64,000 bases of DNA from a virus (Duplodnaviria; Caudoviricetes), in IMG/VR virus record IMGVR_UViG_3300020388_000009; one strand, 5' to 3'. The notes below the pieces were generated by a model that saw only the letters and a list, made by a program, of their open reading frames with translations, was not told the DNA's origin and did not search any database. Shown here piece by piece: positions 1 through 63,012 of the stretch; the first letter of the stretch is position 1, and every line of letters starts with the position of its first letter. The position numbers were made by a program, and so were the translations under genes.

Positions 1-397
1 CTTCATATTTACCATGTTTAAGTAATTCTACCGAAGATAATATAGCTTTTTTAATTTCTTGATTTTTACAAAAATCTAATGCCTGTTCTTTAATGAATTC
101 TAAATCTGGTGCATCTGTATATCGCCATGCGTCTTTAAGATGCTCTACAACTTGAGTTTTTAGAACATCATGATCTAAATCTTCCATCTTCACTTTCATT
201 ACTTCTAATGTAGGTGATGATTTATATTCTTTATGGTATTCAAGGATTATGTCAACTATCCAGTTATTAGCTTCTGATTCGAAATATTTAGGAACCATTA
301 TATCTGATATTTGTTGTAAAAAACTTTTATCAGTTAATAAAGCCGTTATAACTTTTACTTGAAATGCATATCCGTATGAACTTAATCTATCTGTCAT
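1..397 (-). CDS. Replicative DNA helicase (DnaB/T4 gp41-like), N-terminal part, runs off window
   Basis: Not in ORF track. Manual translation from ATG at 397: MTDRLSSYGYAFQVKVITALLTDKSFLQQISDIMVPKYFESEANNWIV...LDFCKNQEIKKAI, resembling the gp41-like N-terminus; follows SSB, recombinase and exonuclease. Confidence 0.75.
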   Translation of the reverse strand, partial: MTDRLSSYGYAFQVKVITALLTDKSFLQQISDIMVPKYFESEANNWIVDIILEYHKEYKSSPTLEVMKVKMEDLDHDVLKTQVVEHLKDAWRYTDAPDLEFIKEQALDFCKNQEIKKAILSSVELLKHGKYE

Positions 398-426
398 ACT
401 TAATTATAATAATTTTTTTTCAATAA

Positions 427-1476
427 TCAAAGAGAAGTGTAAGCATTTAATGCATTGAATGAAGTATGTAACCAGGAATCTAAATCTTTTATTACCGTAT
501 ACATTTTATCTGCCATGAACATTTTCTTAAACTCATATGTATTTGTACGATCAACTTTACCTTTAACTTTATCCAGAGTTAACATTTTCGCGCCACCATG
601 TATATTAACTTCTTTTAATTGCATAAGGTCATAATTTAGTTGCAATGTTTCTTTATTTTGTAACACAGTTTCATGAACTTTATATTTCTTATCAACGTTA
701 TCCGCATATTCAACTATTTCATCAACTGTTATCTCTCTATCTTCACATATTATAGGAAAATGTTTAATCAAACTTTTTGTTCCTACACCCTTTATGCCAG
801 GAATATTATCCGATTTATCACCAATAAACGTTCTGTACAACAAGTAATTTTCAGGACTAAATCCAAATTCTTCTTTCATTAGACTTGGAGTATATAACTT
901 CTTTTTTATAGGACTCCATACTGAAATACGATCATTTACCAATTGTAAAAAATCTCTATCCGTTGATACAATAGTTGCTCTATTTTCTTTTTCTGTATAT
1001 AATTCATTGGCAATATATGCCATTATATCATCCGCTTCAACGTTATCAACTGATAATGTTGTAATTGGTAAACAATTAAGATATTGAGCCAATCTTCCAA
1101 ACTGACGGCGCATACTATCTTGTTCATCTTCTAATGAAGCAAATTCTTGATATCTATTAAATGCTGTTTTATTTGCACGATTGGCTTTGTAATTTGGATA
1201 AATTGCCTTACGACGTTTTGAACCACCTTTTCCATCAAATACAATTACACATCTAGTAGGTTTTAACTGACGGATATTGGCAGCAACGGACCGTAAAAAG
1301 CCCGTTACTCCTCCAATATGTTGTCCATCATCATTTAGAGCCGGAACGGCTGAAAACACTCTAATGAATGTATTCAGTCCGTCAATGATTAAAAGATGGC
1401 TGTCTTTACTTGACCCCGTTCCTTGCTCATGCTCCCTTTCCACTTCTCGTAGTATGTTAAGATATTTAGAATCCAT
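427..1476 (-). CDS. 5'-3' exonuclease / flap endonuclease (T4 RNase H, PolI N-terminal-like)
   Basis: Motifs LIIDGLN, VFDG, YKANR, EADD, STDRD, GDKSDNIPG. Confidence 0.92.
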   Translation of the reverse strand: MDSKYLNILREVEREHEQGTGSSKDSHLLIIDGLNTFIRVFSAVPALNDDGQHIGGVTGFLRSVAANIRQLKPTRCVIVFDGKGGSKRRKAIYPNYKANRANKTAFNRYQEFASLEDEQDSMRRQFGRLAQYLNCLPITTLSVDNVEADDIMAYIANELYTEKENRATIVSTDRDFLQLVNDRISVWSPIKKKLYTPSLMKEEFGFSPENYLLYRTFIGDKSDNIPGIKGVGTKSLIKHFPIICEDREITVDEIVEYADNVDKKYKVHETVLQNKETLQLNYDLMQLKEVNIHGGAKMLTLDKVKGKVDRTNTYEFKKMFMADKMYTVIKDLDSWLHTSFNALNAYTSL

Positions 1477-28200: not shown

Positions 28201-28548
28201 GTTATCAGTTAAAGGAGATAAGTAGGAATCAGTTCTATTAAAAAATACACCATTCCCCCTATAGTTTGCATAAGAATCGTCTGTATGTACTACTTTTATA
28301 ATACCATCAACTTCTAATTTTTCTCCTGGTGCATTAGTTCCTATACCAACATTACCATCAGGTTTAATTCTTAGTTTTTCTGAGCCATCAGTCGTAAATG
28401 CTATACCATTAGTCTCCGGTTGAAATATACCGGTATCGGTATCATCGATAAATGAATAGGCTGGGACGCTGGCTGTACCATCGTCCGTACGTATTCGTAT
28501 TAAATCTGCAGAACTTCCGCTATGTATTATTTTTTTCCATCCAGCCAC
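22258..28548 (-). CDS. Long tail fibre with GNVGIGT repeats and C-terminal intramolecular-chaperone-like domain
   Basis: About 12 G[NK]VGIG repeats; GTG start with AAGGA; C-terminus FTGYH...GEGAIWV...GDYITTS...AFVGCTYHCG. Confidence 0.8.
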   Translation of the reverse strand: MAGWKKIIHSGSSADLIRIRTDDGTASVPAYSFIDDTDTGIFQPETNGIAFTTDGSEKLRIKPDGNVGIGTNAPGEKLEVDGIIKVVHTDDSYANYRGNGVFFNRTDSYLSPLTDNTSTLNIGYNGGKWGNVEINGAIIRFENGPNEFARITSTGNVGIGTPTPNDKLQVYGNATYISVKNTSNKKVAVLGSDSSGDGSLIIRDSAGNNKISLYGENGTDSYINNGGKVGIGLNTTLYQKFTVNGNIDVRGGDGCLLTFNNGDGGIGVHYNDADGTTGRDIAFKTYKEVVGNTEKMRITKDGKVGIGTATPDATLEVAGNVKAISFTGSLSGSVSHALVADSVTDATLLSQSNLWYNGTTYLSSSVNVGIGTNIPNTPLHVYAPESTIKFESSHGRESSINQGGGNFHLHADHASGVAINYGNTNPGLLKLYSDTTSKVQISAAGDSYYNGGNVGIGITSPSAKLHISASSGTNLLELTKNSGYVTSIDMDDTGLDIGHNSDGRAINLKTANEDRLTIKGDGKVGIGTSTPSGPLHVKGSTNDTVVYIDTDDNAIGDSAKISFNGSRAHIGWIDSAVTLTDGGGNKDIKLKVDNASIFLETNNTTRMFVSASGNVGIGTTSPATKLDVNGITTSDAFRTDTSTTDYSLITRNSAGNSPLYVQSANTSTDQPIAFFSYGSATANAGTKVLKVGKDISYFDNTNLGIGTTTPPKALTVQGDISGSGDLYTAGNHIIGGSTAHNGYQIIEDQIVVRSGSSIFGHDTDPAEAFHQFTGSVSITGSLIVTGNVTGNSDTATVATTVTITDNESTNENNALIFTAGGAVAGGNLGLESDGTLTYNPSTGNVTATGFIGTLTGNADTATSAVTVGTTPTNNTAMDFNIGMFAGTSGNQYMMVDNNGGLQYNPSTNTLTVPNISANLTGDVTGDLTGNADSANFAQNALDATNATNATNATKVNINNKDTGDTNCPILFTLDSSAGFKSVFEDSALYFNATNNILYSTTFSGALTGTATNASNVKVTADSGNAEHPITFIDDTSPDGGNESLKADAAFKYNPGTDTLTVGKLLLNSLVAGSSSDLIVVQDSSGNLKTANLLTTDGDGNLASQFAGQATNALHVNLSTTTNNDNYPIPFQFGTSTAAGNFAMAKDSVNSLTYNPSSNTLTVPNIVGTLTGNADTATSATNADTLDGIDSLQFLRSDQDDTATGDITFAGDIYGRYVNNQSTKLYRMGGIFFTWDSDNYGTNFNHSITSTNNGTYNDNITINSYGHVRINIDSNNNGTNTFSIGKHTTGTANTLLTLNESGILSVGDLQLTALSTQNSENTSLMIDSSGNVGTRELGSNAFNSTTIPTNNNQLTNGAGYITSADVDGFTETEIEITMAREAGWEPAFGGATEANVIWDQSEDAIKIYSATDNAIGAAFRAVYMKSGETKRFTTMIKGSVVDTNGAYLRLYQHNGDMPNGKTHVSNNAGSSSPFVQEDDTGIENWHDNGAVSTSWVTYEYDYTATADGYVSLVVLNWSTYSYNTLWVKTPDIQTVTMANATNADHVDIDTITSGIARLLVADHPGDNFVGSQDGYKQVYGEDALFWDGTNHQLGINCNPSFALEVAGEAHISGKVSCGNDISASGQIYATSVNIMDEIGHIGDSDTKIEFTSDDIEFYAGNRKMLRLNENSSTDYVIMDTDYFQIQNENSSDSTKFLFHVESGNNSTYNGNIYLSTDGMEIFTNSSVRKIMMGNDNRRTDLVINSNGDVGIGTSSPSANLEVYRNNSDTDKQFSINQDGDGDATQTFRLTGIQEYAMGIDHSDGDKFKISDGGQLGSSDRLTIDTNGDVGISKNSPAARLDIVGPDYNATLATSVLGLTSTGNALQWQFGVSNTYGTNGALYIEDDSSNQGIKLHPDFDGGDDDFRNLLTSFTGYHRSVPKEGDGNTNLYPIGTIVSSNGSYNNPNSRKRPISSSRPNISEAVPVIEMSNIAKDKKVFGVVWRYEYKGESLDEPTGNICSFMGTGSEDRIFVNSLGEGAIWVTNASGNLENGDYITTSPIPGLGMKQDDDLLHNYTVAKITQDCDFQIDSDNYDCIEFEWSGSTYRKAFVGCTYHCG

Positions 28549-44714: not shown

Positions 44715-47700
44715 TTATATATCACCGGTGCCATTTGATGAAACATGTATTCCCTTAATTGAATTTCCATAACTATCTTTAATTCGCACACGCATCAACA
44801 TTACACTTCCTGCATTTGCTGGAATGAATTGAGAAAAATTAATTTTTACTCTGAATGCACCACTTAGATCTTGGCTATGGTTACGCATTTGAGATAATAA
44901 ACCTACATTATCGTTATATAATACTGAACTTAAATTTGCTTGGAATATATTTTGAAATTTTGTTCCAGGATTTGTTGGTGAATTTGCAACACCGACTGTT
45001 GGTAATGGTCCTGGTAGTGCAACATCTATACGTACAGGTCTATCATCTAATCCCACTCCACTTTCAATATTACCGGCTGTAATACGGAAGTTATCTCTAT
45101 TGGTATCATCTGTGAATATAAATATATACATTATTGGCGTGGTTGCTTCAAATGCTCGGCAGTAAAATTTATCACCAGTTTCATTGGAATAATCAGGAGC
45201 ATTTGGATTCACGACCGCGTAATTTATAGTATGGCCTTGTCTATCAGTTGCAACAGATGTATAATCCAATGTCGGATATTCTAATCGGCCATCATAATAT
45301 TGTTGTAGCTCATTGGAACCAGATATTGAAATATGAGATTGGAAGTTTGGTCCAGCAGATGAATCGGTATATAACTCATCATCAATAATAGAAGCACTAA
45401 AATGCCCTCTTAACCAAAAATCAGCATATCCGGGTATACCAGCTGGGGTTGCGCCGGCTACGGCAGCTGTACCATAATTTGCATTTGCTCCTCCTCCTTT
45501 ATTAAAATTGAATGAAGCAGAATCGGCAAATGATGCACTTGTCCATCTAAAAGATTCATTGTAAAAGTCTTCTATCGCTATATCAGATGTTTTGCCGTTG
45601 ATCGCATTTGTACTTGAAATTGCATTTTCATCTAAAAATCGTCCAACTGGTAATTTGGCTTTATTAGGATCAACGGTCCAAGAATCATCAGAACTTAAGT
45701 CACGTTTATAGGTTCGAGCATATAATTGATACACCTGACCTTTATCTGCGTTAGTTACATCCGGAGCTTTGACTTTAAAGTCTTTGATACTAGCACTTGC
45801 ATATGAGGTTGGTACAATGTCTCTAGAAGAGTTTCCAAATTGCAAACCGTTCATATTAGCTGGTAAATTGAATAATGATTGTTCATGCACTGTAGCTGAT
45901 GCTCCACTACCAGTCTCTAATTTAAAATAAGTATTGCCATGATCATGTCCTATTTCAGATACATAATCTGATGAATTGTTTGATCGTCTATATGTGTTAT
46001 GTGGTATAGCATGTACTCGGTCATCCAAACTAATTTTAAAGTACTCATCTTCTTTAAAATAACTAACTCCAGAGAGACTGAAAGTTGGTTCTACTCCTGC
46101 TAGCGGTGCATAACTTAAAGTTGGTTCGCCATGCAAACTAATTGTCGGTTCACCTTTTATTCCGTCATCATAATACCAACTAAACGGTTTCCAACTTTGA
46201 ATTATTTCATCATTAATTGAATGAGAAAATTCCAAATTATTATATCCATCATTTAATTTGGCATCAATTTCTATACGAGCGCTCCAACCTTGATATCCAT
46301 TAGGATAATACTCTACACCATTTTGTATACTTTGTGACACATTGTTAAATGGTTGCACAGTTGTTACAATTAATCGACCTTTGCTGGCATGTGGTGCTGT
46401 GAATGATGCCGTACCATTACCTGCATATTCTGTTGATATATTTTGACTTCCAGATTTAGATAGTAATACAAATTGTCCACCTAAATCATAATTTACTACT
46501 TCCGAGCCGTTAATTTTAACAATTAATGATCCAGAATCACCAAAATCAAATAAACGATCATTGTTGCTATAATCACCAGTACTGGATGGTGTAAATGGAG
46601 TAAATGACATGCTGTAATTAACAGGACCGGTATGTGATTCTTTTGCCATTATCACATTGGTAACATGAGAACCAGGCGAATCATCAGGACCGTAAATACC
46701 TAAACCGGTTGGTAATGTTGCAGAATATAATCTATGATAGTTACCGTCTATACCAACAAAATTAATTCCTTGTCCACCATATGGGTTATTGGTACTATCA
46801 TGGCTGCTAGCATTTCCTGCTCCCCAATATCTTCCTTCCATGGATCGAGGTTTTGCCGGAACCACAGCAAATGTAAACTCGCTAACTGATGATGTTCCTT
46901 GACCATAATATGGATCAGATATTGTAGTAGACCCAGATATAAGAACTGTTAAGTGTTCTACTTTGGTCAATGTACTCATATAACTACTATCTATCGTTAA
47001 CGATGATGTATTATGGCTAGAGTCGGATGATTTGGCTGGTGCGAATGTTAATCCGGTGGGGCCATTAGTATTGTAATTGATATGTACATGGTCTGCAAAT
47101 CTAACATATGATTCAGATGTAATAAGTGGAGCACTTGCCGATATCCCAGATATAACATCGATTGAAATATCATTATCAGCGTTATATGTGACATATACCG
47201 GTAGATCTGAACTTGATGAATAATCTGTGTCTAAGCCAGACGTAGATGCCGCAACAGTAATCGATGCTGTCCGAGCTGGAGATACCGTTATAATTGATTC
47301 ACTAACTACTGCATATTGCACAGTCTTACTATCATTGAATCCATGAGTTACTTTAGATGCGGAAATTATAAACACTTCTGGATCTGTATTAAGACCTCCG
47401 GAATTAATAAACTGTATTGGTGTAAACGATGATGTATATGACATGCTTTGAGATCCATGCTGTTCATACAACGACTCTATAGAGCTTGATAAATGAGCAG
47501 ATCCAGTATGTAATAAAAATTCATGTGATCCAAATGTTCCTATACGTGGCGGAGCTTCAAAGAAAAATATGTTTTCTGCGCCGGCATATTCACCTTCACC
47601 TTCGGCATAATTTCGCCAATGACCGGCTGCAAATGTTATCATATACCATCGGTACAGAGTGCCATTTTCAAATTCAATGTTTTTGTCTTGATTTCCATCT

Positions 47701-50700
47701 GAATGAAAATGTAATGGTTCCCAATTTGCCACAGATCCGGTTGTGAATGCACCTTCATATGCAGAGCCAGAAATTGATATCGCTGTATTAGAATGATGTT
47801 GATTGGTTCGATGTTCTATTACTATTCTATTTAACGCTATTGGTTGTACACAGTCAATTGCAATCCATAAATTAGCACCGGTGTGATCAACGGCCATTGC
47901 ATTGCTATCATATTGCCCGGTATCAGTGTTATATATGTTAACAGTGTTATTCCATCGAGTTAACCAGTTATCAGTATATGAACCTAAGATATATTTTGGT
48001 GGATAACTAGAGTACCAATGCGATGCAGTGATATTAGTTTCTGCTGGAATAAATTCAGGTCCGGTGAAATCAGTCGGGTTTACTCCATCTTTATTACTAA
48101 AACCTGTCACTTCTATTTCTGTTTTAGCATGATGTGGTCCAAATGGTTCTTCTATATCTGCTAATACTCGCATACTTACAAGTTGATTACGTGAATCTGA
48201 ATTCTGATATGTTCGATTTACAACGTTATCTGTTTCAGTGGTTTGAAGTCCATGCAATACTCTAGTTTCGCGCGATGATGTACCGGCCGTTGATCCAGAA
48301 TGTTCCTTTTCCACTTCTACACGCAAATTAGTGATCTGAGTTGCATCAGGAGGTTGAATTGTAATATCTGCACTTGTTACAGACCCAGTTTCAATTCCAT
48401 CCGCGGAATCATTAATTATGTATACACCGGTTGTATTTGATCCTGTTTCAGCTGATGGTGTAAATGTATATGCACCAGCCGCAAATTGAGCTCCTCCATA
48501 CCATGACGAAGTAAAGGTTTGAGAAAATAAATTATCAGAATTCAATGCTCTCATTCCAGAATCACTTGCGGTGTCTTGACTGGCAGTATGGAATCCAAAT
48601 GCAAATGAATGACCTTGACCATCTGTCGCAGATACCTGAGTTTGGAAATGACCTAATCCTAGCGGTTCAATAACTTTACCTAATATACGGAAACGCATTG
48701 CAGCACTTCCAGACCATATATCACCTATTGCATCAGCTGTTTGTGCTGTTAAAGTATTATTATGCCCGTATAATATTTTCTGCGTCCGTGAACTGACTCC
48801 AATACTTGAACTGTATGGAAAGGCTTCTGTTTCTACTCGCAGTCCATCTATTTCTAATGGTTTACTTGCACTTACTACAAGATATAGATATTGAGTACCG
48901 GTACTGGATTCATATCCATTTTCGGATACATTATCATGTTTAATAAAATTAGTAGTATCAGATAAATATATTTGTATATAATCATTTGTTGAATTATTAT
49001 TATAACTTCCTGATAAAGTTTCTCCGATCCATGATGATGTATATCGACCAACTAATCGTGACTGTTCATCATATCCTACTTCAGATGATGCAGTTTGAGT
49101 TGATGATGTACTGAACGCAATAAATTCGCTATACTTAGTATTGCCGCCATAACCTTTATTATCTATATAATATCGCATTAACGAACTACTATGCATTGGT
49201 CCTACTGGTTCTATAATTTCAGTTAAAATACGGAATCGCGTCACTGCATGTGGATCATATATATCAGATAAATCACTACCAGTTGCGCGAGTTGTTTCTT
49301 CGCCATATAAAATTGATCTGGAAATTGCACTGGCATTTGACACAGATGTGTTTTGCGTACCGATACCACTCTCTCCCCGTGTTTCAGTTTCTATTCGCCA
49401 GTTTTCTATTATTGTAGGTGCAGTATCAATTATTTGCATTGTAGTTGTAGTAGGTGATGATATTGTATGATCATTTTCATTTGTTGGTGCATGTACAAAA
49501 CTAGCAGAAGCAATCCAATCTCGCGTACTTCCGGCGCCTACTGATAAACTACTTCCGGAAAACGATGTTGTGTATTGTGCTACAATTCTATTTGATGAAT
49601 CTTCAAATGAATTGACCGTTACTATTGATGAACCAGTTTCAAATGTAATTGTTTCAGTTATATTAGTTTGTCCGGAAGATTTAAGTATTTTGGTAACAGC
49701 CGTTGGATGTGTAACTGGACCTACTGGTTCAATTATTTCAGCTCGTATTCGGAATCTAGATACCGATTGTGATGCGTATAATGATGCAGAATCATGAGTT
49801 GCAAATGATGATGAATCAGCTAATGATCGTCTAGTTACTCCATATAACACGGTCCGCTGTTGTGTTCCGGTAACGCCGGCGTCCGTAACAGCGCTAGCAC
49901 TATGACCATAATTTTCAGATTCTACAAATATATTTTTAATAATTGTCGGTGGTGTATCATGTACAGTTAACTCACCATCCGTTTCAGTAATATCAAATCC
50001 ATTTTCGCCAGAAACTTGTTCTATGAAACTGCCAGTCAAAACATATACTGTATTACCACCTGCAGCTGCCGTAAATGATCTTCCTGTAAATGATTGTGTA
50101 TATCGAGTAACTAATCGGTCTTGGTCATCATAACCATGTGTAACTAGTCCACCTTCCGCTATTGATCCAGTATCTATCATGTAAAGTTTAGAACCACTAC
50201 CATATGATGCACTTACCTGTATTTTATGAACACCTGGTCCAATTGGTTCAGTTACCTTTGCTCGGAATCTTACACGTGATACTGATTGAGATGCGTATAT
50301 GGATGCGGATGGATGATTAGTCCATGACAAACTTTCAGATGTTGCATTTGTTATTCGAGGATCTCCGTATAACACTGTACGGGTTGCATTAGACATGGCC
50401 ATATCAGAATATCCATGCGTTTCTGTTTCCCAGAAAACATCTTCAATGGCAACTTTCGGAGTATCATGTACTACCATGGTAGTTGATTGTCCAGATTCGG
50501 TTACAAATCCACTAGCATCATTAGGTGTATGTAATATTGATCCGGAAGTATATGTCCATTCGGTAAAACTATTACTACTAGCTGATAATTGTTGTCCTAC
50601 CCATGATGATGTGTAATGAGCAACCAATCGGTTCTGTGCATCATATGCAATTGCAGATGAAGCAGTATGAACTGAGCCAGTACTAAAATATAATATATTA

Positions 50701-53450
50701 TTAATAGGGGCAAGACTAGAACCAATTATTGTTTCAAAAAATTGTAATTCAAATATACTAAAATATTGACTAGTAGAAGATGCATTACATGTGAATCGAT
50801 AATATTGGTATGTATTTAAATTTGTAAAATCGTTTATACCTCTTGTTACAGTGCTTGATCCGTTACCGGTAACTGTATCTAATGTAACGTATCCTGAATT
50901 AGGTGAATTAGAAGCTTCGAATGTCCAACCAGTCATTCGATATGAGCTAAAATATAATATATATTGTCCAATATTTACCGCAGAACCGAAATCATATGTA
51001 AATGAAGCTCCAGCAATTCCTGAACTGTCATAAAATATATGTGAGTCAGTATTAGCAGTACCTGACGTAGTACCATCAAATATATCACCAGGCCAAAACG
51101 TGTCACTTGCTGCAGTAGTTGTTAAATTGTTTTCTGATAATCCTGATATGGCAGCACCTATACTATTTGTACCAGGAGGTGTGCTCCATACCTTTTCAAA
51201 ACGTGATGCAGTATGATGCGGTCCGAATGGCTCTGTTATAGTTGCTAACACACGGAAACGTGACACGGAATGAGATGCGTATAATGATGCGGAATCGTGG
51301 CCTTCAAAGGAAGCGGAATTTATCAAAGTATGATGAGGTGTACCATATAATACTGTACGCATTGTATCTGCACTTCCTGTATCAGAATATCCGTACGTCT
51401 CTGATTCATATACTATGTTTGTTATTTCCGTTGCCGGAGTAGCGCTCACAGATACCGAAGCATATGTTCCTGGTATAATTGTACGTCCGGCGTTTGTAGC
51501 AGAATCAAATGAAGCACTAAATGTATACTCGCCAGGCAACAAATTAAAGTTGATCCATGATGATGTGTAATGAGCAACTAACCGGTTCTGTACATCATAT
51601 GCAATTTCAGATGATGCAGTATAAGTTGCACCAGAACTAGTATGAAATTGAAATTCATAAGAATGTGCATAGTCACTACCTGGTGTAGTTTCTAAAGTTG
51701 ACTTCATGTTGGTATGGTGTGGTCCAAATGGTTCTGTCACAGTTGCCAACAAACGTAATCGTACAACTGATTCACTTATATATTCTGCCGATTTTTCATA
51801 TCCTTCTAAACTTGAAGTTTCTGAAACTTGTAATGTTGAAGTGTATCCATATAATACGCTTGCCGATCTTTCAAATGATCCAGTACCAGTTAAAAATGAT
51901 CCAGATTCCACTTCCACTCGTACATTTGATATTTCAATATCAGGTACAGGGGTTACTGTCAATGTGGTCATTGGTCCTGCTGCGGCATCAGATATATGAT
52001 TATAAACTCCATGACGTATAATATCTGTAGTATCACCAGTTTTATTAATTAGAGTATATGTAGCTGGTTCATACTGAAAAGGCGAAAAACCTAAACTTTC
52101 TGTCACATCGGTAAAGGTAAAATTGTCGCCGTATGCAGATGCCGTGGCTCGAAATAATCCAGTTGCCATACTTCCGCTAAATCTGAAAGTTTTATTATCC
52201 AATACTGAAGTTCCGCCGAATTCGGCAAATTTTATATCTGTGAAATGTGTACCATCTGCAACATAATCTGGTGGTTCTGTTATATCAGCCATTACAGATA
52301 CACGTACCAGCGATGCAGTATAACGAGGATGTAGTCCAACAATATTATCACGTGTAATGACATCATCGTATAACACCGTAGTAGTAAAATTATTAATTCC
52401 AATACCAGAAAATGAACCAGATTCTATATGAGCTCGTATATTACTAATACTTGCAGTATTTGGTGGTATTACTAGTAAATTAACATCAACGGAAGATGAA
52501 TTTTCAAACTGATTATTATCCTGCATATAAACCGTAAACGTTTCTTGATACGACTGCACTGATGATGCGTGTATTGTAGTTCCATCCATAACACCGTAGT
52601 TTGATATACTGGCAGTAAACACTAATGCATTATCTGGCATAGCCGATGCATCGGGACCATAACCATCTGGTGCACCTGGTGAGATAGATCCAGTTGCTAT
52701 GAAAATTTGGCTATCAGCAATATCAGGTTGTGGATGTTTTAAAAATAAATTGTAACTTGCAGATACCGACGTGATAGGTGGATCTACCTGTACTCTGGAA
52801 GCTGAAAAAACTCGTATAAAATCGTTTTGATTAGAATCTTCAGATCCGGTAAAACTAAAAATTATATCTTTGGCATTTGTATCATGAGCTAAAGACATAG
52901 TTAAACTAGCACGATGTGCAATCGTCGGTGGTACATTGATAAACCCTTTAATAAATACAGTAGAATATACCAATTGAGTATTGTTTGCGCTACCGGTCTC
53001 AGTTGCATAAACTAAATATCGATGTACGCCAGGTGCTAAATCATTTTCAAATGCATTTTGACCGGTTAGATCATTAACATAATCCTGGCCAGTATAAGAT
53101 GAATTGCCGCCGGCTTGCTTGGTTACAAATGTATCTTGAATTTTAATAAATGAATAATAATTTGGATTGAAATCCGCGGAATGTGTAGTTTGTATTAATA
53201 CATCTCCTTGGTTCGCAACATCTTGTCCAGAACCAAGTATTATCACATGATCAATTGATTCAGCAGGTGATCCGGATATTCCAGAACCAGAACCAGCAAA
53301 AAATACTTCAGTACCTATTCCGGAGAGGCCAGAACCATCACCTACAAATGCATCTGCAGTTATAGTGGTTGCTGTAACTCCACTTTTAAATTGAGCTATA
53401 CTACCAGATTGTACCCAATTGCTACTAGTAAATTGATGTTTTCCTGCCAT
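44715..53450 (-). CDS. Giant (2911 aa) virion surface protein with ~8 long repeats and two inserted discoidin-like domains
   Basis: Repeats marked by I..E.E...R..LYG...SR.R..A.I.EP.GP; YQYYRFTC and YRWYMITF domains. Confidence 0.65.
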   Translation of the reverse strand: MAGKHQFTSSNWVQSGSIAQFKSGVTATTITADAFVGDGSGLSGIGTEVFFAGSGSGISGSPAESIDHVIILGSGQDVANQGDVLIQTTHSADFNPNYYSFIKIQDTFVTKQAGGNSSYTGQDYVNDLTGQNAFENDLAPGVHRYLVYATETGSANNTQLVYSTVFIKGFINVPPTIAHRASLTMSLAHDTNAKDIIFSFTGSEDSNQNDFIRVFSASRVQVDPPITSVSASYNLFLKHPQPDIADSQIFIATGSISPGAPDGYGPDASAMPDNALVFTASISNYGVMDGTTIHASSVQSYQETFTVYMQDNNQFENSSSVDVNLLVIPPNTASISNIRAHIESGSFSGIGINNFTTTVLYDDVITRDNIVGLHPRYTASLVRVSVMADITEPPDYVADGTHFTDIKFAEFGGTSVLDNKTFRFSGSMATGLFRATASAYGDNFTFTDVTESLGFSPFQYEPATYTLINKTGDTTDIIRHGVYNHISDAAAGPMTTLTVTPVPDIEISNVRVEVESGSFLTGTGSFERSASVLYGYTSTLQVSETSSLEGYEKSAEYISESVVRLRLLATVTEPFGPHHTNMKSTLETTPGSDYAHSYEFQFHTSSGATYTASSEIAYDVQNRLVAHYTSSWINFNLLPGEYTFSASFDSATNAGRTIIPGTYASVSVSATPATEITNIVYESETYGYSDTGSADTMRTVLYGTPHHTLINSASFEGHDSASLYASHSVSRFRVLATITEPFGPHHTASRFEKVWSTPPGTNSIGAAISGLSENNLTTTAASDTFWPGDIFDGTTSGTANTDSHIFYDSSGIAGASFTYDFGSAVNIGQYILYFSSYRMTGWTFEASNSPNSGYVTLDTVTGNGSSTVTRGINDFTNLNTYQYYRFTCNASSTSQYFSIFELQFFETIIGSSLAPINNILYFSTGSVHTASSAIAYDAQNRLVAHYTSSWVGQQLSASSNSFTEWTYTSGSILHTPNDASGFVTESGQSTTMVVHDTPKVAIEDVFWETETHGYSDMAMSNATRTVLYGDPRITNATSESLSWTNHPSASIYASQSVSRVRFRAKVTEPIGPGVHKIQVSASYGSGSKLYMIDTGSIAEGGLVTHGYDDQDRLVTRYTQSFTGRSFTAAAGGNTVYVLTGSFIEQVSGENGFDITETDGELTVHDTPPTIIKNIFVESENYGHSASAVTDAGVTGTQQRTVLYGVTRRSLADSSSFATHDSASLYASQSVSRFRIRAEIIEPVGPVTHPTAVTKILKSSGQTNITETITFETGSSIVTVNSFEDSSNRIVAQYTTSFSGSSLSVGAGSTRDWIASASFVHAPTNENDHTISSPTTTTMQIIDTAPTIIENWRIETETRGESGIGTQNTSVSNASAISRSILYGEETTRATGSDLSDIYDPHAVTRFRILTEIIEPVGPMHSSSLMRYYIDNKGYGGNTKYSEFIAFSTSSTQTASSEVGYDEQSRLVGRYTSSWIGETLSGSYNNNSTNDYIQIYLSDTTNFIKHDNVSENGYESSTGTQYLYLVVSASKPLEIDGLRVETEAFPYSSSIGVSSRTQKILYGHNNTLTAQTADAIGDIWSGSAAMRFRILGKVIEPLGLGHFQTQVSATDGQGHSFAFGFHTASQDTASDSGMRALNSDNLFSQTFTSSWYGGAQFAAGAYTFTPSAETGSNTTGVYIINDSADGIETGSVTSADITIQPPDATQITNLRVEVEKEHSGSTAGTSSRETRVLHGLQTTETDNVVNRTYQNSDSRNQLVSMRVLADIEEPFGPHHAKTEIEVTGFSNKDGVNPTDFTGPEFIPAETNITASHWYSSYPPKYILGSYTDNWLTRWNNTVNIYNTDTGQYDSNAMAVDHTGANLWIAIDCVQPIALNRIVIEHRTNQHHSNTAISISGSAYEGAFTTGSVANWEPLHFHSDGNQDKNIEFENGTLYRWYMITFAAGHWRNYAEGEGEYAGAENIFFFEAPPRIGTFGSHEFLLHTGSAHLSSSIESLYEQHGSQSMSYTSSFTPIQFINSGGLNTDPEVFIISASKVTHGFNDSKTVQYAVVSESIITVSPARTASITVAASTSGLDTDYSSSSDLPVYVTYNADNDISIDVISGISASAPLITSESYVRFADHVHINYNTNGPTGLTFAPAKSSDSSHNTSSLTIDSSYMSTLTKVEHLTVLISGSTTISDPYYGQGTSSVSEFTFAVVPAKPRSMEGRYWGAGNASSHDSTNNPYGGQGINFVGIDGNYHRLYSATLPTGLGIYGPDDSPGSHVTNVIMAKESHTGPVNYSMSFTPFTPSSTGDYSNNDRLFDFGDSGSLIVKINGSEVVNYDLGGQFVLLSKSGSQNISTEYAGNGTASFTAPHASKGRLIVTTVQPFNNVSQSIQNGVEYYPNGYQGWSARIEIDAKLNDGYNNLEFSHSINDEIIQSWKPFSWYYDDGIKGEPTISLHGEPTLSYAPLAGVEPTFSLSGVSYFKEDEYFKISLDDRVHAIPHNTYRRSNNSSDYVSEIGHDHGNTYFKLETGSGASATVHEQSLFNLPANMNGLQFGNSSRDIVPTSYASASIKDFKVKAPDVTNADKGQVYQLYARTYKRDLSSDDSWTVDPNKAKLPVGRFLDENAISSTNAINGKTSDIAIEDFYNESFRWTSASFADSASFNFNKGGGANANYGTAAVAGATPAGIPGYADFWLRGHFSASIIDDELYTDSSAGPNFQSHISISGSNELQQYYDGRLEYPTLDYTSVATDRQGHTINYAVVNPNAPDYSNETGDKFYCRAFEATTPIMYIFIFTDDTNRDNFRITAGNIESGVGLDDRPVRIDVALPGPLPTVGVANSPTNPGTKFQNIFQANLSSVLYNDNVGLLSQMRNHSQDLSGAFRVKINFSQFIPANAGSVMLMRVRIKDSYGNSIKGIHVSSNGTGDI
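50601..51622. repeat. 68-bp near-identical repeat (50601-50668 and 51555-51622)
   Basis: 5 mismatches by manual alignment. Confidence 0.85.
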
Positions 53451-57421: not shown

Positions 57422-58195
57422 CTAACAACCCATTACTTGTTCCGCCACCATTTGTCTCCAATTTGGAAATCCCATTTGACGAATTCTAATTGCTTTAATT
57501 AATGATCGGAAATTTAATTCAACGGCATCAAACTTTTTAAATGCAGATTTCAATGCACTTAAAGCTTCTTTTTTAATTTTCATGTCTTTAATTTCTGGTT
57601 CAATTACCGGAAGTAAATCAGTCATTCTTTTTAACATTTGATTTGGAGTTAATGTTATATCCAATACAAATGCACGACTACGAATTGCACTATCTACTTT
57701 TTGAATTGGTAAATTAGATATAAAAATTATCTTACCAGTAAAATCAAATGATCTAGGAAGAGCATCACCATCTCTATCTTTAAGAGGTTTAGCTGACATC
57801 CAACTAATAACTCGTTTATCGTAACTATCTAAAGCTCCTTTTAATAAGTTAACACCATCTGAATCTTTAAATACTGAATCGCAGTCATCAAATATAATTA
57901 ATTTATCGCTATTTTCAAATAATGTAATAAACATACCTGCTGCAGTACAACGACCTTTTACATGTACAAAATCAATACCTTCTTCAAATCCTACTTCATC
58001 TAATGTTCTTGTAATATTAAATGTCTTTCCTAATCCAGGCATGCCGGTAACAACTAACGATGGAGAAACTCCAGCCGCTACCATTTTTGTCAAGTTATTC
58101 ATATCATCAAACATTGCTGAAGGACGTTTCTTTTCTTGGAAAGTTTTAAAATTCATTTTCATGTTTTTGGTTTTTTGGTTTTTAGCTATACGCAT
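57422..58195 (-). CDS. AAA+ family ATPase
   Basis: Walker A GMPGLGKT, Walker B IIFDDCD, IIFISN sensor, AIRSR arginine finger. Confidence 0.85.
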   Translation of the reverse strand: MRIAKNQKTKNMKMNFKTFQEKKRPSAMFDDMNNLTKMVAAGVSPSLVVTGMPGLGKTFNITRTLDEVGFEEGIDFVHVKGRCTAAGMFITLFENSDKLIIFDDCDSVFKDSDGVNLLKGALDSYDKRVISWMSAKPLKDRDGDALPRSFDFTGKIIFISNLPIQKVDSAIRSRAFVLDITLTPNQMLKRMTDLLPVIEPEIKDMKIKKEALSALKSAFKKFDAVELNFRSLIKAIRIRQMGFPNWRQMVAEQVMGC

Positions 58196-58223
58196 ATCTC
58201 TATCTTTTAATTACTTATAATTA

Positions 58224-58253
58224 AAGATAAGGAAAAGATCTCACGCTACCAAA
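58224..58253 (-). promoter_or_regulatory. Class E promoter for AAA ATPase
   Basis: TTTGG tagcg TGAGAT cttttcc TTATCTT. Confidence 0.7.
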
Positions 58254-58282
58254 TCTTTTGGCAGCTTTTTTTAAAAAAGTTC

Positions 58283-58310
58283 AAAAAAAAACCCTCCATG
58301 GTAGGAGGGC
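58283..58310 (-). terminator. Intrinsic terminator after major capsid gene
   Basis: GCCCTCC-TACCAT-GGAGGGT followed by T8. Confidence 0.9.
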
Positions 58311-58335
58311 TTTAATATAAAAATAATTTTAAATA

Positions 58336-60072
58336 CTATATAGTATCTAAGCCATGAACTAATACTTTACCGTAGAATTCAGGACGAACTATTTTCTTAG
58401 CATAACGAGTCATAACACCTTTTCTTGGAGTAAAGTTGTCTGGATCGTATACCAATGGAGTCATAATTAATGGAATGTATGGAGAATATACAGCACCTGT
58501 TTCTAGGAACTGAGATCCACGATATCCCATTAAAATAGAATTTTCAGTCATATATGGATTCTTATAAACTTGGAATCTAGAATTAATAGATCCAACTTTT
58601 TGAACACCCATTGCAAACTGCATTTTATCACCATCTGTATCAGCAGCATATCCTGGAATAGATTCTAGGATAGTCGCAACAGTTGGAGAACATACAAGGA
58701 AGTTAGCTCCACCTCTTAAAGTTAATTGGTGAATTTTGTTCGAAACTTTTTGTATTTTAGTACCTAAAGTTTGGAACCATGTTCCTTGGTTATATGCTTG
58801 AGCTGCAGAATTTCCGGCATTAAATCCACCAACGGCTGCATTATACTCATAACCTACTTTCGCAGACCATCTTTCAACAGTTTGAGCATTTTCTTGTAAC
58901 ATGCCTAAAATTTCTAAATCAATTTCTTGCGAAACGTATTCAGATAACATGCTAGTCAATTCTGCTTCAGCATCAATTGAATGATATGCATTTAAATCTT
59001 GGGCAAATTCTGGAGTCCATACTGCCTTCAACTTACGTGTCTTTGCAACAATGGCTTCAGATCTCATTTCAAGATTAATTTCTGGAATATTTAAAGAAGT
59101 GGAGCCGTTCATGTCTTCGTTAGGAGCTTGATCTTCGTAGTCACCTCTAGTAATATCAGATGGTTGTAACGCAAATGATACTTTAAATGCAGATGTCGCT
59201 TTGATATCTGCATCTTTCTTAATTAAGAATTCAATATGCGAACCGTTAGCAGTTGTTCTAGTAAATTCTGGATAGAATGCATTTGATCCAGACAAGTTAA
59301 ATGAACGAACAGCTTCTTGATCATAACGAGCAGCTACAGATGCATCTGAATGTAATGATTTAGAAGGTACTGATAAAATAACATGATTATCACCATGTAC
59401 AGATGCAGAAAACTCAGAATTAAAGTTTGTAAAGATACCTAACTCTGTAGCAGTCATTGCATCACCTGCTGATGCAGCAGTAGATGTAAATAAACCAGTA
59501 GTTGCAGATATAGAACCAGTTCTTGCAGTAGTAATTCCAGATTCACCTAATGTAACAGAAGCACCTTCCACCATATTAACTGAATATCCAAAACGACCTG
59601 GGCCATAAAGACCTTCAGTTCCTGGTGTTCCTTTACGAGCATCAGTGATACCAAATACAGAATCAGATTGAGCATCTTTTCCTTGACCAGTCAAGAAATC
59701 ATTTCCACCTGCTTGGTCAATTTGATTAACCGCAGTACCATATTTAAAGTCTAAGTAAAATACTAGACCAGATGGTAAGTTCATTGGTTGTACAGAAACA
59801 AAGTCTTTAGCAGCAATTTCAGCAAAAATTCTACGAACTAATGGAAGAGCTACCCCTGACCATTCTTCTGAATTTGAGTTTCCACCTGTCGCAGATGCTT
59901 CTGTTACCAATTGCTTGGCTTGGTTCTCTAAAAGAACGGCCATGCCTTTTCTTTCAACCTCTGATGATAATCCTTCCAATAAACCAGTCCTTTCCCACTT
60001 ACGTTCAAGTGCGATAGCAGCTGCATTTTGATTGGCACGACCATCTTGAGGCAATAATGAATTTATATTCAT
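58336..60072 (-). CDS. gp23: Major capsid protein (gp23-like)
   Basis: LLENQ, VQPM..PSGLVF, AKTRKLKA.W..E.AQDL.A.H..DAEAEL, YSPYIPL, FTPRKGVMTRY. Confidence 0.97.
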   Translation of the reverse strand: MNINSLLPQDGRANQNAAAIALERKWERTGLLEGLSSEVERKGMAVLLENQAKQLVTEASATGGNSNSEEWSGVALPLVRRIFAEIAAKDFVSVQPMNLPSGLVFYLDFKYGTAVNQIDQAGGNDFLTGQGKDAQSDSVFGITDARKGTPGTEGLYGPGRFGYSVNMVEGASVTLGESGITTARTGSISATTGLFTSTAASAGDAMTATELGIFTNFNSEFSASVHGDNHVILSVPSKSLHSDASVAARYDQEAVRSFNLSGSNAFYPEFTRTTANGSHIEFLIKKDADIKATSAFKVSFALQPSDITRGDYEDQAPNEDMNGSTSLNIPEINLEMRSEAIVAKTRKLKAVWTPEFAQDLNAYHSIDAEAELTSMLSEYVSQEIDLEILGMLQENAQTVERWSAKVGYEYNAAVGGFNAGNSAAQAYNQGTWFQTLGTKIQKVSNKIHQLTLRGGANFLVCSPTVATILESIPGYAADTDGDKMQFAMGVQKVGSINSRFQVYKNPYMTENSILMGYRGSQFLETGAVYSPYIPLIMTPLVYDPDNFTPRKGVMTRYAKKIVRPEFYGKVLVHGLDTI

Positions 60073-60085
60073 TTTCTTTTCCTTT

Positions 60086-60991
60086 TTACAGATTAGCTAA
60101 TTTTTTCCATCTAGCAGATAATGCAGTACCTTCAGAAATCACTTTCTTTGGAGCTGTTGACCGACTAGGTGTAGAAGCATAGCTTTCTTTGATTGATCTT
60201 TTTGTTTTACCATTCAAGTTAAACGATTCAGATAATGTAGCATAAACTAATTTTACTTCACGAATAGATGAAGCGCGATCAAAGTTTTCAATTACTTTCA
60301 TTTTCTGAGATTCATTCATTGAATGATTTTTAAACAATTTGTTTGAGAATAATAATTTTGCATTAAGAAGATTAACTTCATTAATTTTACCTTTCAAGAA
60401 TCGAATAACGTTGTAAGCTTCTTCTAAGTCTTTTTTAGATTCGCCTTCATCTTCTTTAGCTTCTTCCACAGGGGTTTCATCTGCTTCATCTTCTTCTCTT
60501 AAAGCATTAATAATTTCATCAATAGAAATATCTTCATCTACTTCATCGCCGCGGCCTTCTTCAGCCACAGGAGCATCATCTTCACCTTCTGCATTTTCTG
60601 CAACTGGTTCTTCAGAAGCTGGTTCTTCTTCTTCATGAATTTCAGATTCTAATTCTTTGATAATCGCTTCTAATTCTAGATCTTCATCTTCAGCTACCGG
60701 CTCATCTTCAGGTGCCATTTCTTCAGAATGAACATCCATTGGATCTTCATCTGCATCCATGATACCTCTGCCTTCAGCTGCTACTGGCTCTTCCACCGGT
60801 GGTTCTTCAGCTACTGGTTCAGCTTCTAATTCTGGTTCATCTAAACCTTCTTCTTCAGCTAATTTAGCAGATAACATTGATTGTAATCTAGGAGTAAAAG
60901 CTTCTTCTAATGCAATTTTAGCATTAGCAAGTGCAGTTTCTCTTACGGCTTTCGCGTCTGCAATTGCTTCTTTTAATAAATCATTTGCCAT
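60086..60991 (-). CDS. Prohead core scaffolding protein (gp22-like)
   Basis: Very acidic, coiled-coil, many LxE sites; directly upstream of capsid gene; ends RWKKLANL. Confidence 0.8.
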   Translation of the reverse strand: MANDLLKEAIADAKAVRETALANAKIALEEAFTPRLQSMLSAKLAEEEGLDEPELEAEPVAEEPPVEEPVAAEGRGIMDADEDPMDVHSEEMAPEDEPVAEDEDLELEAIIKELESEIHEEEEPASEEPVAENAEGEDDAPVAEEGRGDEVDEDISIDEIINALREEDEADETPVEEAKEDEGESKKDLEEAYNVIRFLKGKINEVNLLNAKLLFSNKLFKNHSMNESQKMKVIENFDRASSIREVKLVYATLSESFNLNGKTKRSIKESYASTPSRSTAPKKVISEGTALSARWKKLANL

Positions 60992-61110
60992 GATTTTTCC
61001 TCTTATTTAATTTGGAAATAAGGCTATTAAGAGCCTCAATAGGAAGTACTAATGTACTTATTTAGATAGAATTCGAGTGACCGATTATTAAAATACGGTA
61101 TCGTTAACAT
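60992..61110 (-). promoter_or_regulatory. Structured 5' leader of the scaffold/capsid mRNA (three hairpins plus SD AGAGGA)
   Basis: Stems at 61074-61103, 61044-61059 and 61019-61038. Confidence 0.55.
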
Positions 61111-61153
61111 TTATATATATGCAGTAATTTACAAAAACATTCGTTTAAAACGT

Positions 61154-61173
61154 AAAAAAGTGCCAAAAGGCAC
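61154..61173 (-). terminator. Intrinsic terminator after bS21
   Basis: GTGCC-TTTT-GGCAC-TTTTTT. Confidence 0.8.
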
Positions 61174-61178
61174 AATTT

Positions 61179-61430
61179 TTACTGATTCTGGTCATCTAAC
61201 CATTGATAATACTTGGCTCGATCAACCTCCTCTTTTCGTTTTTGACCTTTTGATTTAAATTCTTTACGGTCTTTTAATTCTTGAATCTTCCCAGATTCTT
61301 TTAATTCTCTTTTAAAAGCTTTTAATGCTGAGTTTATATCACCTTTTGGATATTGTTTTGTTGATAAAACTTTAACAGCTACACCTGCACCAGGTATAAT
61401 ACTTTTGAAATGTTTACTTTGTTTACTCAT
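61179..61430 (-). CDS. rpsU: Phage-encoded ribosomal protein bS21
   Basis: V.V...DINSALKAFKR..KESG...ELKDRKEF....QKRK; basic, 83 aa; head-module location as in reported bS21 phages. Confidence 0.85.
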   Translation of the reverse strand: MSKQSKHFKSIIPGAGVAVKVLSTKQYPKGDINSALKAFKRELKESGKIQELKDRKEFKSKGQKRKEEVDRAKYYQWLDDQNQ

Positions 61431-61460
61431 GTAACTTATTTTATTTTAATATTAATTGAT

Positions 61461-61490
61461 AATATAACAAATATATTTCAAACGTCCTAA
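61461..61490 (-). promoter_or_regulatory. Class E promoter for bS21
   Basis: TTAGG acgtt TGAAAT atatttg TTATATT; also contains TATATTTG. Confidence 0.65.
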
Positions 61491-61900
61491 TCTTCTGATA
61501 AAGATTCACCTATCTTATAATAACGATTTAAAACAGTACCCATATCTTCATATGCCGATTCTAAACGTTGTTGCATTGAACTCATCTCTGTTGCAGTTTT
61601 TTCAAAAACTTTATAAGCTTCATTCATTTGTTTCATATGTCTAGAAGTAGTAACATTATCAAACCAATGTTCAGTTTCTGATAAAGTCATCTTTTCTGCC
61701 CGTTCTACCACGCTTTTTAGAGTCTCTGCAACTTCTTTTAATCTACCCGAACCATATACCATCTCACCTAACTTATGAAAATTACCGACTGCTTCAAGAA
61801 ACTCATTACGTTCTTCTTTTGTCATTTTTTCATCATCTGTTTCTCCTAAATATTTTTCATTTAAGATATGCTTCATTAATTTGTTTTCGTATTTGTTCAT
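61487..61900 (-). CDS. Head-module helical protein (137 aa)
   Basis: HWFDNVT..RHMK, QRLESAYEDMG.VLNRYY; N-terminal ILNE. Confidence 0.7.
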   Translation of the reverse strand: MNKYENKLMKHILNEKYLGETDDEKMTKEERNEFLEAVGNFHKLGEMVYGSGRLKEVAETLKSVVERAEKMTLSETEHWFDNVTTSRHMKQMNEAYKVFEKTATEMSSMQQRLESAYEDMGTVLNRYYKIGESLSED

Positions 61901-62202
61901 TATATATCTCCTATATCTGCAGAAAAAGTATCTTGTTTAGCTAAATTTTGTTTCCGATCTAACATTTTTCCCATTGCAGCAACTTGCTTTTCTGCTCCTT
62001 GCAAATATCTAGCAACTTGATTTTGTAATTGTTGATATTGAGGATCACCAGTTTCTTCATCTTTAGCTTCTAATGCAGTTACTATTTCTTTTTGAAAATC
62101 TTCCATTGCTGTGAGTAGTCCATTTGTTTGTTCAATAAAGTATGCATAATCAACTGGTTCTGATTGTTCCTTTAATAATTTACTTAATTTTATCCTACTC
62201 AT
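61900..62202 (-). CDS. Probable internal head/core protein (true start MSRIKLSKLLKE)
   Basis: The longer call overlaps the upstream ORF; ATG at 62202 overlaps its end. Confidence 0.65.
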   Translation of the reverse strand: MSRIKLSKLLKEQSEPVDYAYFIEQTNGLLTAMEDFQKEIVTALEAKDEETGDPQYQQLQNQVARYLQGAEKQVAAMGKMLDRKQNLAKQDTFSADIGDI

Positions 62203-62404
62203 AACTTCTCTCCGCTGGTATATTTCCGAACACGTCCGGTCCAGATGGTTTAGTTCCATTTTTTGATTTACTAGCATATTTACTACGACCATCCTCTAAC
62301 CCTGATGTTCCTTCATTTGCCAATGTATCAAATACTTCGCCAGTACCTTTTGATCCTTTTTTATTATAAGGACCGTATTGTGATTGTAAATCTTCTAATG
62401 CCAT
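62195..62404 (-). CDS. Hypothetical protein (69 aa)
   Basis: Immediately after the protease; MALEDLQS start resembles MALMDLKS of the gene at 12865. Confidence 0.6.
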   Translation of the reverse strand: MALEDLQSQYGPYNKKGSKGTGEVFDTLANEGTSGLEDGRSKYASKSKNGTKPSGPDVFGNIPAERSYE

Positions 62405-62406
62405 AA

Positions 62407-63012
62407 TTAAAACTCCGTTATAATATCAGTAATAATACGTTCTACATTTGCAAATTTATTTGCAGTAACAGATCCTTTAGATTCATTTACTGGAGATAAA
62501 AATGCTCCATGAGTGGATGGATTAGAAACAAAGTCAAATGCAATTAATTCAAAGTCTGGCTGTACCTCTAATGTATCTCCGCCTTCTCTCATTACTTCTT
62601 TAACAGATCCCATTCCTCGTGATGATATACCTAATCGTATACCTGATTTAAAAAGTTCTTTAAGAATATTTCCTGCAGGAGTTCCTAACACTTCAACTTT
62701 ACCTACCAAATCATCCCCTTGCCATCCCATTTCTAAAACGTTATGAGATACATTATTTAAATTAACTACCGATGAATCCGGATGATCCAATTCTCCTAAT
62801 GCACGTCGTTCTTTGATAAATGTAGCAGAATAATTATTTGCTTCACGCATTAAAGTTTCTTTTGGATAAATTCTTCCATTTTGATTTTTTGCTTCTGCTC
62901 TCTGAAGAACTCCTTTTACAATTAATTTACCATTATTTTGAGTTAATGATTCATTTATTGCTTGGGGTGATACTTCAAATACTGTATAATCTACTAAAAG
63001 TTGCTTATTCAT
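62407..63012 (-). CDS. gp21: Prohead core protease (gp21-like)
   Basis: NQNGRIYP, ALGELDHP, VSH, GISSRGMGS, DFVSNPST. Confidence 0.95.
   Translation of the reverse strand: MNKQLLVDYTVFEVSPQAINESLTQNNGKLIVKGVLQRAEAKNQNGRIYPKETLMREANNYSATFIKERRALGELDHPDSSVVNLNNVSHNVLEMGWQGDDLVGKVEVLGTPAGNILKELFKSGIRLGISSRGMGSVKEVMREGGDTLEVQPDFELIAFDFVSNPSTHGAFLSPVNESKGSVTANKFANVERIITDIITEF

Follow-up and report, generated by a model that had tools for sequence, protein, structure and literature searches.

A bS21 gene without a Shine-Dalgarno motif in the head module of a T4-like phage, and its co-occurrence with Shine-Dalgarno motifs in related phages

The DNA described here is a stretch of 64,000 nucleotides from the IMG/VR virus record IMGVR_UViG_3300020388_000009 (Duplodnaviria; Caudoviricetes), referred to below as the window. 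It holds a gene for the ribosomal protein bS21 (61179..61430, minus strand, 83 aa) inside the head module of a T4-like myophage. Phages encode bS21 more often than any other ribosomal protein. In the phage group studied here, bS21 and Shine-Dalgarno (SD) motifs on the phage genes nearly always occur together, and this co-occurrence suggests, without proving it, that the phage protein lets ribosomes read SD motifs.

The gene product was assigned with the Pfam profile PF01165 (Ribosomal_S21) and by alignment to solved bS21 chains. With 34 bits over residues 29-74 (E 2.4e-8), the open reading frame (ORF) passes the profile's cut-off of 27, and its best phmmer matches among solved ribosome chains are 9i5v_9 (E 8e-4) and 7jil_z from Flavobacterium johnsoniae (E 1.6e-3), with bS21 throughout the matches ranked after them. 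The Bacteroidetes signature in bS21 consists of a tyrosine (Tyr54) and a less basic C-terminal part (Jha et al. 2021, PMC7797042), and both traits are found here. Tyr74 (AKYYQWL) aligns to Tyr54 of F. johnsoniae (AAYIQTL) in the phmmer alignment, so the tyrosine that the initial annotation had raised as a caveat is indeed present, and the tail YYQWLDDQNQ has a negative net charge and an acidic C-terminal end. On the other hand, the norm for the Bacteroidia type is about 64 aa without an N-terminal extension, whereas the alignment gives the phage protein about 16 extra N-terminal residues compared with host-type bS21. Counted up to the conserved alanine of the first helix, it has 34 residues where host-like forms have 14, so that about 20 additional ones stand ahead of that helix. 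The same alignment bears out two further peculiarities noticed at first sight together with the extension: a loop insertion of 5-6 residues, and SKG at the site where KPS is typical of the family. Judging by profile and alignment, the ORF is a genuine phage bS21, of the Bacteroidia type in its C-terminal half.

An AlphaFold2 model built with 33 homologues (predicted local distance difference test score of 85) showed a short N-terminal helix followed by the expected helices. Foldseek found zero matches to it in the PDB, which is not surprising for a helical protein that is small and extended. Among 1.84 billion representatives, HMMER detected only 61 bS21 relatives, all of them metagenomic proteins, and the donor lineage was not found among them. 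The gene is widespread: marine metagenomes, Tara included, contain 60 homologues with 67-95% identity, and IMG/VR adds 12 loci.

The gene is flanked by signals on both sides. A promoter-like motif, TTAGGA-N17-TTATATTA, is predicted at 61460..61490 (minus strand), sharing nucleotides with the stop codon of the ORF upstream. The motif is kept in 12 relatives, recurs ahead of about 12 genes in the relative G001 and of gp32 in the window, and has a counterpart in Flavobacterium phage immuto (AGTTGG-N17-TTATATT). The initial annotation had named it class E and taken it for the gene's own promoter; what stands of this claim is a recurrent conserved motif at 61461-61490 rather than a transcription start established by mapping. 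The TATATTTG ahead of bS21 was also considered as a canonical Bacteroidota promoter, and is better read as part of TTAGGA-N17-TTATATTA. On the 3' side there is an intrinsic terminator at 61154..61173 (minus strand), in agreement with the initial annotation; a terminator tool reported it as GTGCC-TTTT-GGCAC with a run of six T at 61173-61160. It is kept in the 12 relatives, two of which (L006 and L010) have a different stem, GTACC...GGTAC.

Between the promoter-like motif and the gene lies an A/U-rich leader (61431..61459, minus strand) with AAGTTAC just ahead of the ATG. GGA, AGG and GAG are all absent from the 30 nt preceding the start codon, which sets the gene apart from the rpsU unit of Flavobacteriales, where an extended SD stands ahead of the bS21 gene. 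The SD-less start first noticed in the window extends to very divergent clades: an SD 4-mer at -17..-5 is absent from 58 of 60 distinct bS21 genes, whereas about 55% of their neighbours carry one, and the two SD-bearing genes belong to a single subclade (L137/L144). The sequence AAGTTA[TC] directly ahead of the ATG (61431-61437 in the window) likewise recurs in clades that have diverged widely, including those with another promoter region, and AGTT is found ahead of the ATG in other genes of the phage group. In the clade of the G006 type (L146:1590-1660, L148, L138 and L184), bS21 is preceded by the late-promoter-like ATTTATATA and then by a hairpin with a T run. From these motifs the gene looks late-transcribed or attenuated there, unlike the early-type promoter in the window.

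All 47-50 genes called in the window lie on the minus strand, and the GC content is 34.7%. The window holds the structural module of a T4-like myophage, with a gp23-type capsid protein, a gp21-type protease and a tail sheath (Phage_sheath). The left end carries replication genes (a polA fragment, gp32, RecA/UvsX, a 5'-3' exonuclease and the start of dnaB), and the Pfam families Gp23, Peptidase_S77, Phage_sheath, gp32 and RecA mark the phage as a T4-like, immuto-like myovirus. As initially described, bS21 sits inside the head module, between the prohead protease and the scaffold and capsid genes. It is three genes from the former and two from the capsid gene, on the strand of the structural genes, as it is in all related loci too.

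The gp21-type protease gene (62407..63012, minus strand; Peptidase_S77, 94 bits) has AAGGA at about -10..-6. Two small ORFs of 137 and 130 aa were called between it and bS21 (61487..62292, minus strand), with no family match in Pfam or PHROG. On the other side of bS21 lies the gene for an acidic scaffold-like protein of 301 aa (60086..60991, minus strand), which would occupy the gp22 position according to its location between protease and capsid and its composition, and which has no Pfam or PHROG match. It is preceded by the SD-like AGAGGA (60998..61003, minus strand) and by the late-promoter-like TATATAAA found by motif scan (61110..61117, minus strand). The gene for the gp23-type major capsid protein (58336..60072, minus strand; Gp23, 262 bits) has the SD-like AAGGA at 60080..60084 (minus strand).

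Some other features were observed in the module. Just past the protease gene, within 61900-62404, an ORF of 130 aa (61900-62292) shares about 100 nt with one of 69 aa (62195-62404) that is read in another frame; a start may have been miscalled, or a frameshift may join the two. In the region 57422-58313, a strong terminator (10-bp stem, 58313-58288) stands after the capsid gene, and past it, still inside the structural module, there is an SD-less gene for an AAA-type ATPase (phrog_1250, weak clamp-loader similarity). The two giant structural ORFs, 44715-53450 (2911 aa) and 22258-28548 (2096 aa, GTG start), presumably encode fibre or baseplate proteins.

SD motifs were scored alike everywhere: AGGA, GGAG, GAGG or AAGG had to begin within -17..-8. 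By this rule 31 of the 47 window ORFs are positive, against 3 in the control stretch at -40..-28, and a GGA begins within -14..-7 in 30 of 50 ORFs versus about 0.5 per position elsewhere. The motifs initially reported were found upstream of the genes for the scaffold (AGAGGA), capsid (AAGGA), protease (AAGGA), sheath (AGAGGAG), tube (AGAGGA) and gp32 (AAGGA). Two genes reported as SD-less also proved to be so: polA (ATG at 8168), read in the window, and the helicase gene dnaB (ATG at 397), whose upstream region was read in close relatives such as L016, with a 100% identical exonuclease protein. In these relatives the dnaB ATG lies 5 nt past a sigma-70-like TTGATT-N16-TATAAT (L016:5960-6011; window 397-445), and hence the dnaB mRNA may be leaderless. 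A late-promoter family with the consensus ATATTTATATAAAA is located about 20 nt ahead of many structural-gene ATGs. AGGA was considered as a part of this promoter and rejected, because its distance to the ATG is constant even in overlapping, promoter-less genes; as this distance is kept in genes that overlap the preceding stop codon, the motif belongs to the start site.

No close phage genome was found for the window in the 2025 GenBank phage collection. Among cultured phages, Flavobacterium phage vB_FspM_immuto has the most similar capsid protein (57% identity); it is followed by a record called Microcystis phage Mel-JY01 (57%) and by LR756508 (51%), a huge uncultured phage. Immuto (NC_055915) shares with the window the T4-like head and tail genes, the gene orders polA-SSB-RecA-exonuclease-DnaB and protease-scaffold-capsid, and a similar TTATATT-type promoter. 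However, there is no PF01165 match in its whole 160 kb genome, and SD motifs are found on only 6 of its 203 ORFs (3%). In this phage (L013-L015) SD-like 4-mers are rarer near the starts (6/203) than at -40..-28 (30/203), which suggests that immuto actively avoids SD-like sequences near start codons.

Related loci, taken as the capsid gene +/-10 kb, were obtained with three capsid queries and from genome bins, and bS21 was detected in them by a hidden Markov model of homologues; the association rests on a sample of the more than 600 known IMG/VR relatives. Among 151 distinct loci with at least 7 ORFs each, the 81 with bS21 have a median SD fraction of 0.54 (range 0.05-0.80; at least 0.25 in 78 of them), whereas the 70 without bS21 have a median of 0.05 (range 0-0.38; at least 0.25 in 6). 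The initial annotation had held that its idea would fail if SD motifs were equally frequent in relatives lacking bS21, and the medians do not show such equality. When ORFs were pooled in a set of 119 loci, SD motifs were present on 714 of 1367 in the bS21 loci and on 33 of 375 in the bS21-free ones. In the pooled bS21 loci, G reaches 33-38% at -11..-8 over a baseline of 8-10%, with the SD-like peak at -13..-8, and the top hexamers AAAGGA, AAAAGG and AGGAGA are complementary to CCUCCUUU at the 3' end of the 16S rRNA. In the bS21-free loci G is flat and the leaders are A-rich at -14, -12..-10 and -3, the pattern described for Bacteroidia.

In the capsid tree, bS21-free groups are interleaved with bS21-bearing ones, with 4-6 changes of bS21 state. 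The first tree, of 66 loci, had four bS21 changes, and all four matched changes of SD state. In later trees, the independent pairs differing in SD all pointed in the same direction and none in the opposite one.

The association also depends on the form of bS21, as seen from the number of residues ahead of the conserved alanine of the first helix. Mahaphage LR745206 has a host-like bS21 of 64 aa with 14 such residues and, unlike the window, almost no SD motifs (2/44). The protein of LR756508 (79 aa, proteobacterial-like, with a basic tail) also has 14, with SD on 4/34, and that of L207 (71 aa) has 21, with SD on 1/20. The other bS21 loci, with 79 extended forms in the 119-locus set, have at least 24 residues and SD fractions of 0.29-0.80; the sole exception is L223, in which the only two head genes present carry SD. 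At the Tyr54 site, the extended forms have Y/F in 50 cases (median SD fraction 0.58) and R/K in 27 (median 0.47), and loss of the tyrosine was thus rejected as the unmasking change. SD use goes with the N-terminal extension and is independent of the masking tyrosine. Any unmasking must therefore act elsewhere, most plausibly via the extension. In LR756508 (484 kb; L242:12735-12974), bS21 starts with MPVAVEVENG, has a long basic tail and lies 2 kb upstream of the related capsid gene; it seems that this slot in the head module can take up bS21 genes that differ in origin.

Regarding the host, indirect clues point to Bacteroidota for the window phage: the bS21 signature described above, the relationship with immuto, whose host is Flavobacterium sp. 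LMO8 according to the GenBank host field, the promoters of the group, and a type IX secretion system (T9SS) signal in G001. The T9SS C-terminal domain was found in a 1152-aa ORF of G001 (48.7 bits, cut-off 27) and in immuto (37.8 bits). The exonuclease of G001 is 77% identical to that of the window, closer than that of the bS21-bearing G002. The domain was not found in the bS21-bearing contigs G002, G006, G007, G008 and G009 with a Pfam model that is insensitive, as a Bacteroides thetaiotaomicron control also fell below its cut-off. Concerning the promoters, G006 (bS21-bearing, 169 kb, 93% complete) has 18 canonical TTTGG-N19-TATATTTG promoters versus 3 in the reversed control, and canonical promoters (TTTG-N19-TAnnTTTG) are 20-fold enriched in its intergenic DNA; they are also enriched in the bS21-bearing G024 and the bS21-free G010. 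In G006 they stand 3-10 nt ahead of the ATG, and 13 of the 15 genes behind them are SD-less. This indicates that genes meant for naive host ribosomes avoid SD, which argues against a host that simply prefers SD. In the first 30 kb of G006, with the head module, SD motifs are present on 16 of 28 ORFs, versus 46 of 171 elsewhere (Fisher p 0.003). Moreover, CRISPR (clustered regularly interspaced short palindromic repeats) data have placed bS21-bearing myophages on Flavobacteriia, Cytophagia and Saprospiria (PMC9723584).

Bacteroidia ribosomes hide their anti-SD. The proteins that hold it in F. johnsoniae are bS21, bS18 and bS6 (PMC7797042, PMC9976891, PMC13000457), and in ribosomes without bS21 the anti-SD is released and the SD-led rpsU mRNA is translated (PMC9976891, PMC13000457). 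According to earlier proposals, the phage protein takes the place of host bS21 to the benefit of phage mRNAs, and its N-terminal extension may bind RNA (PMC7162821, PMC9723584). In the explanation preferred here, the extended phage bS21 would replace or outcompete host bS21 on the 30S subunit of a Bacteroidota host. There it could alter the presentation of the 16S rRNA 3' tail or the mRNA exit site, and so enable SD/anti-SD pairing or otherwise recognise the purine-rich leader. AAGGA-type leaders, ignored by unmodified Bacteroidia ribosomes, would then turn advantageous for phage mRNAs. The bS21 message, as it lacks the motif, would be translatable by unconverted ribosomes and could start the process, and it would be relatively less translated as ribosomes convert, in a mirror image of the SD-dependent autoregulation of host rpsU. 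We infer the host phylum, the incorporation into ribosomes, the SD/anti-SD mechanism and the feedback. Such a mechanism predicts genome-wide SD loss after the loss of bS21, and this is what the capsid tree shows.

Taken as a whole (replacement of the host protein by the extended bS21, an advantage for SD leaders, and an SD-less message of its own), this is the best explanation of the locus, and we hold it tentatively, at slightly under an even chance. A little more doubtful is its stricter form, in which the extended bS21 would make SD-blind Bacteroidia ribosomes SD-reading, independently of the tyrosine and probably via the extension, with an inverse rpsU feedback and with gene loss followed by genome-wide SD loss. 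Confidence stays below one half because the tyrosine is retained, the transitions are few and the clues to the host are indirect.

Several observations weigh against the ribosome switch. Only 3-6 independent transitions lie behind the association and a sign test on them cannot reach 0.05; with so few events, the uncorrected p of 2e-11 must not count as independent evidence. A clade of four loci (L235, L239, L230 and L234) has no bS21 in the contigs searched, and yet SD motifs precede its portal, scaffold and capsid genes and are present on 27-36% of the ORFs. These are IMG/VR contigs of 19-70 kb, those of 58-70 kb being 28-34% complete, and either bS21 lies elsewhere in the genome or the clade is a true exception. 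L279 and L262 are further exceptions. The masking tyrosine, which stacks on A1534 when the anti-SD is sequestered, is retained in the phage protein, and Chen et al. (PMC9723584) take such retention as mimicry of the host function. As for the host, the capsid search of genome bins gave no direct assignment for the window clade. It returned 13 contigs from metagenome-assembled genomes (MAGs) with mixed labels (Flavobacteriia, Bacteroidetes, Bacteroidales, Ignavibacteriaceae, Maricaulis, Woesebacteria, Omnitrophota, Bifidobacterium and Eubacteriales), and binning was discarded as too ambiguous for host assignment. The canonical Bacteroidota promoter TTG-N17-21-TAnnTTTG showed no enrichment in the window, G001 or immuto.

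Furthermore, there is no clean temporal switch in the window: UvsX and gp32 carry SD, and at its replication end 6 of the 11 ORFs do. The idea that SD serves late genes alone was discarded here for this reason; the early/late split is a tendency, not a rule. The ribosome switch proposed in the initial annotation is partly supported by comparison, through the near absence of SD in bS21-free relatives and the conserved lack of SD on the bS21 genes, while its mechanism stays hypothetical.

The alternative that survives best is a coincidence driven by the hosts, with bS21-bearing clades infecting SD-reading lineages (for example, non-Bacteroidia members of the Fibrobacterota-Chlorobiota-Bacteroidota group) and bS21-free clades infecting SD-blind Bacteroidia, while bS21 would serve a generic hijacking or maintenance of ribosomes unrelated to SD. 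It fits the small number of transitions, the SD-bearing L235 clade without detectable bS21 and the binning of the SD-rich L177 with an Ignavibacteriaceae MAG, other bins being mixed, and the clues to the host of the window clade are indirect. Nevertheless, if naive ribosomes preferred SD, neither the SD-less genes behind host-type promoters in G006 nor the SD-less bS21 genes would be expected. Bacteroidota-type promoters occur in bS21-bearing and bS21-free members alike, and the Bacteroidetes signature in the C-terminal half of bS21, the T9SS tail signal of G001 and the published CRISPR hosts also speak for Bacteroidota. A host switch would moreover be required at each of the 4-6 gains or losses of bS21. 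We consider this coincidence unlikely.

A second alternative is pure mimicry: the phage protein would act as the host one, the anti-SD would stay sequestered, and ribosomes would be sustained or captured when host rpsU expression fails. AAGGA would then do something else, for example bind a different phage factor, affect mRNA stability or serve translational coupling. The retained Tyr54 equivalent and the non-basic tail agree with it, as do the interpretation of Chen et al. 2022 (PMC9723584) and the short host-like bS21 of Mahaphage LR745206 without SD motifs. However, mimicry leaves unexplained the classical SD distance and the complementarity to the 16S 3' end, the genome-wide disappearance of the motif where the extended bS21 is absent, and the avoidance of the motif by the bS21 gene alone, and it appears rather improbable.

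Finally, it is very improbable that SD-led mRNAs are read by bS21-free ribosomes, after depletion or proteolysis of host bS21 in infection, with the phage protein as a regulator or decoy that re-caps ribosomes or titrates the rpsU feedback: F. johnsoniae ribosomes without bS21 do read SD (PMC9976891, PMC13000457) and a phage-driven exchange of bS21 was speculated by McNutt et al. (PMC9976891), but re-capping would oppose late genes led by SD, the locus has no candidate protease linked to it, and the association is specific to the extended form.

That phages carry bS21 in their head modules, and that the protein has an N-terminal extension, has been published before. In the freshwater Bacteroidetes myoviruses of Chen et al. 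2022 (PMC9723584), bS21 is near the prohead protease and capsid genes, has an aromatic residue at the Tyr54 site and is proposed to replace host bS21 in favour of phage mRNAs. Unlike there, bS21 of the window, which is marine, lies on the same strand as the structural genes instead of the opposite one and has a promoter-like motif and a terminator of its own, and no SD motifs of phage genes or SD-less bS21 gene are reported in that work. In the huge phages of Al-Shayeb et al. 2020 (PMC7162821), rpS21 has a basic/aromatic N-terminal extension, and host bS21 substitution with preferential initiation on phage mRNAs was predicted; however, SD content was linked there to rpS1, not to rpS21. Pelagibacter phage HTVC008M (Mizuno et al. 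2019, PMC6375957) is also a T4-like marine phage and its bS21 is reported, as cited in PMC9976891, to enter Escherichia coli ribosomes, but its host belongs to a different phylum, and tblastn at E 1e-3 did not pick up its bS21 as related to that of the window. A parallel in function would be the autoregulation of rpsU in F. johnsoniae (McNutt et al. 2023, PMC9976891; Jha et al. 2021, PMC7797042), which involves the same protein family, in which the occupancy of bS21 sets the availability of the anti-SD and one mRNA is treated apart. The polarity is reversed, as the host has SD only on rpsU and the phage has it on nearly everything except bS21. In the literature searched, no paper was found that links phage bS21 to the SD content of phage genes, and neither this coupling nor the SD-less bS21 gene was found described.

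The comparison narrows the hypothesis, given that the extended form of bS21 tracks SD use and the loss of Tyr54 does not, and the idea is directly testable in F. johnsoniae with existing reporter and cryo-EM systems. If true, it would be a natural case of a virus altering the mRNA selectivity of the ribosome. It would also explain why SD motifs are found in phages whose hosts ignore them, and the extended bS21 would give these phages a private translation channel for their mRNAs.

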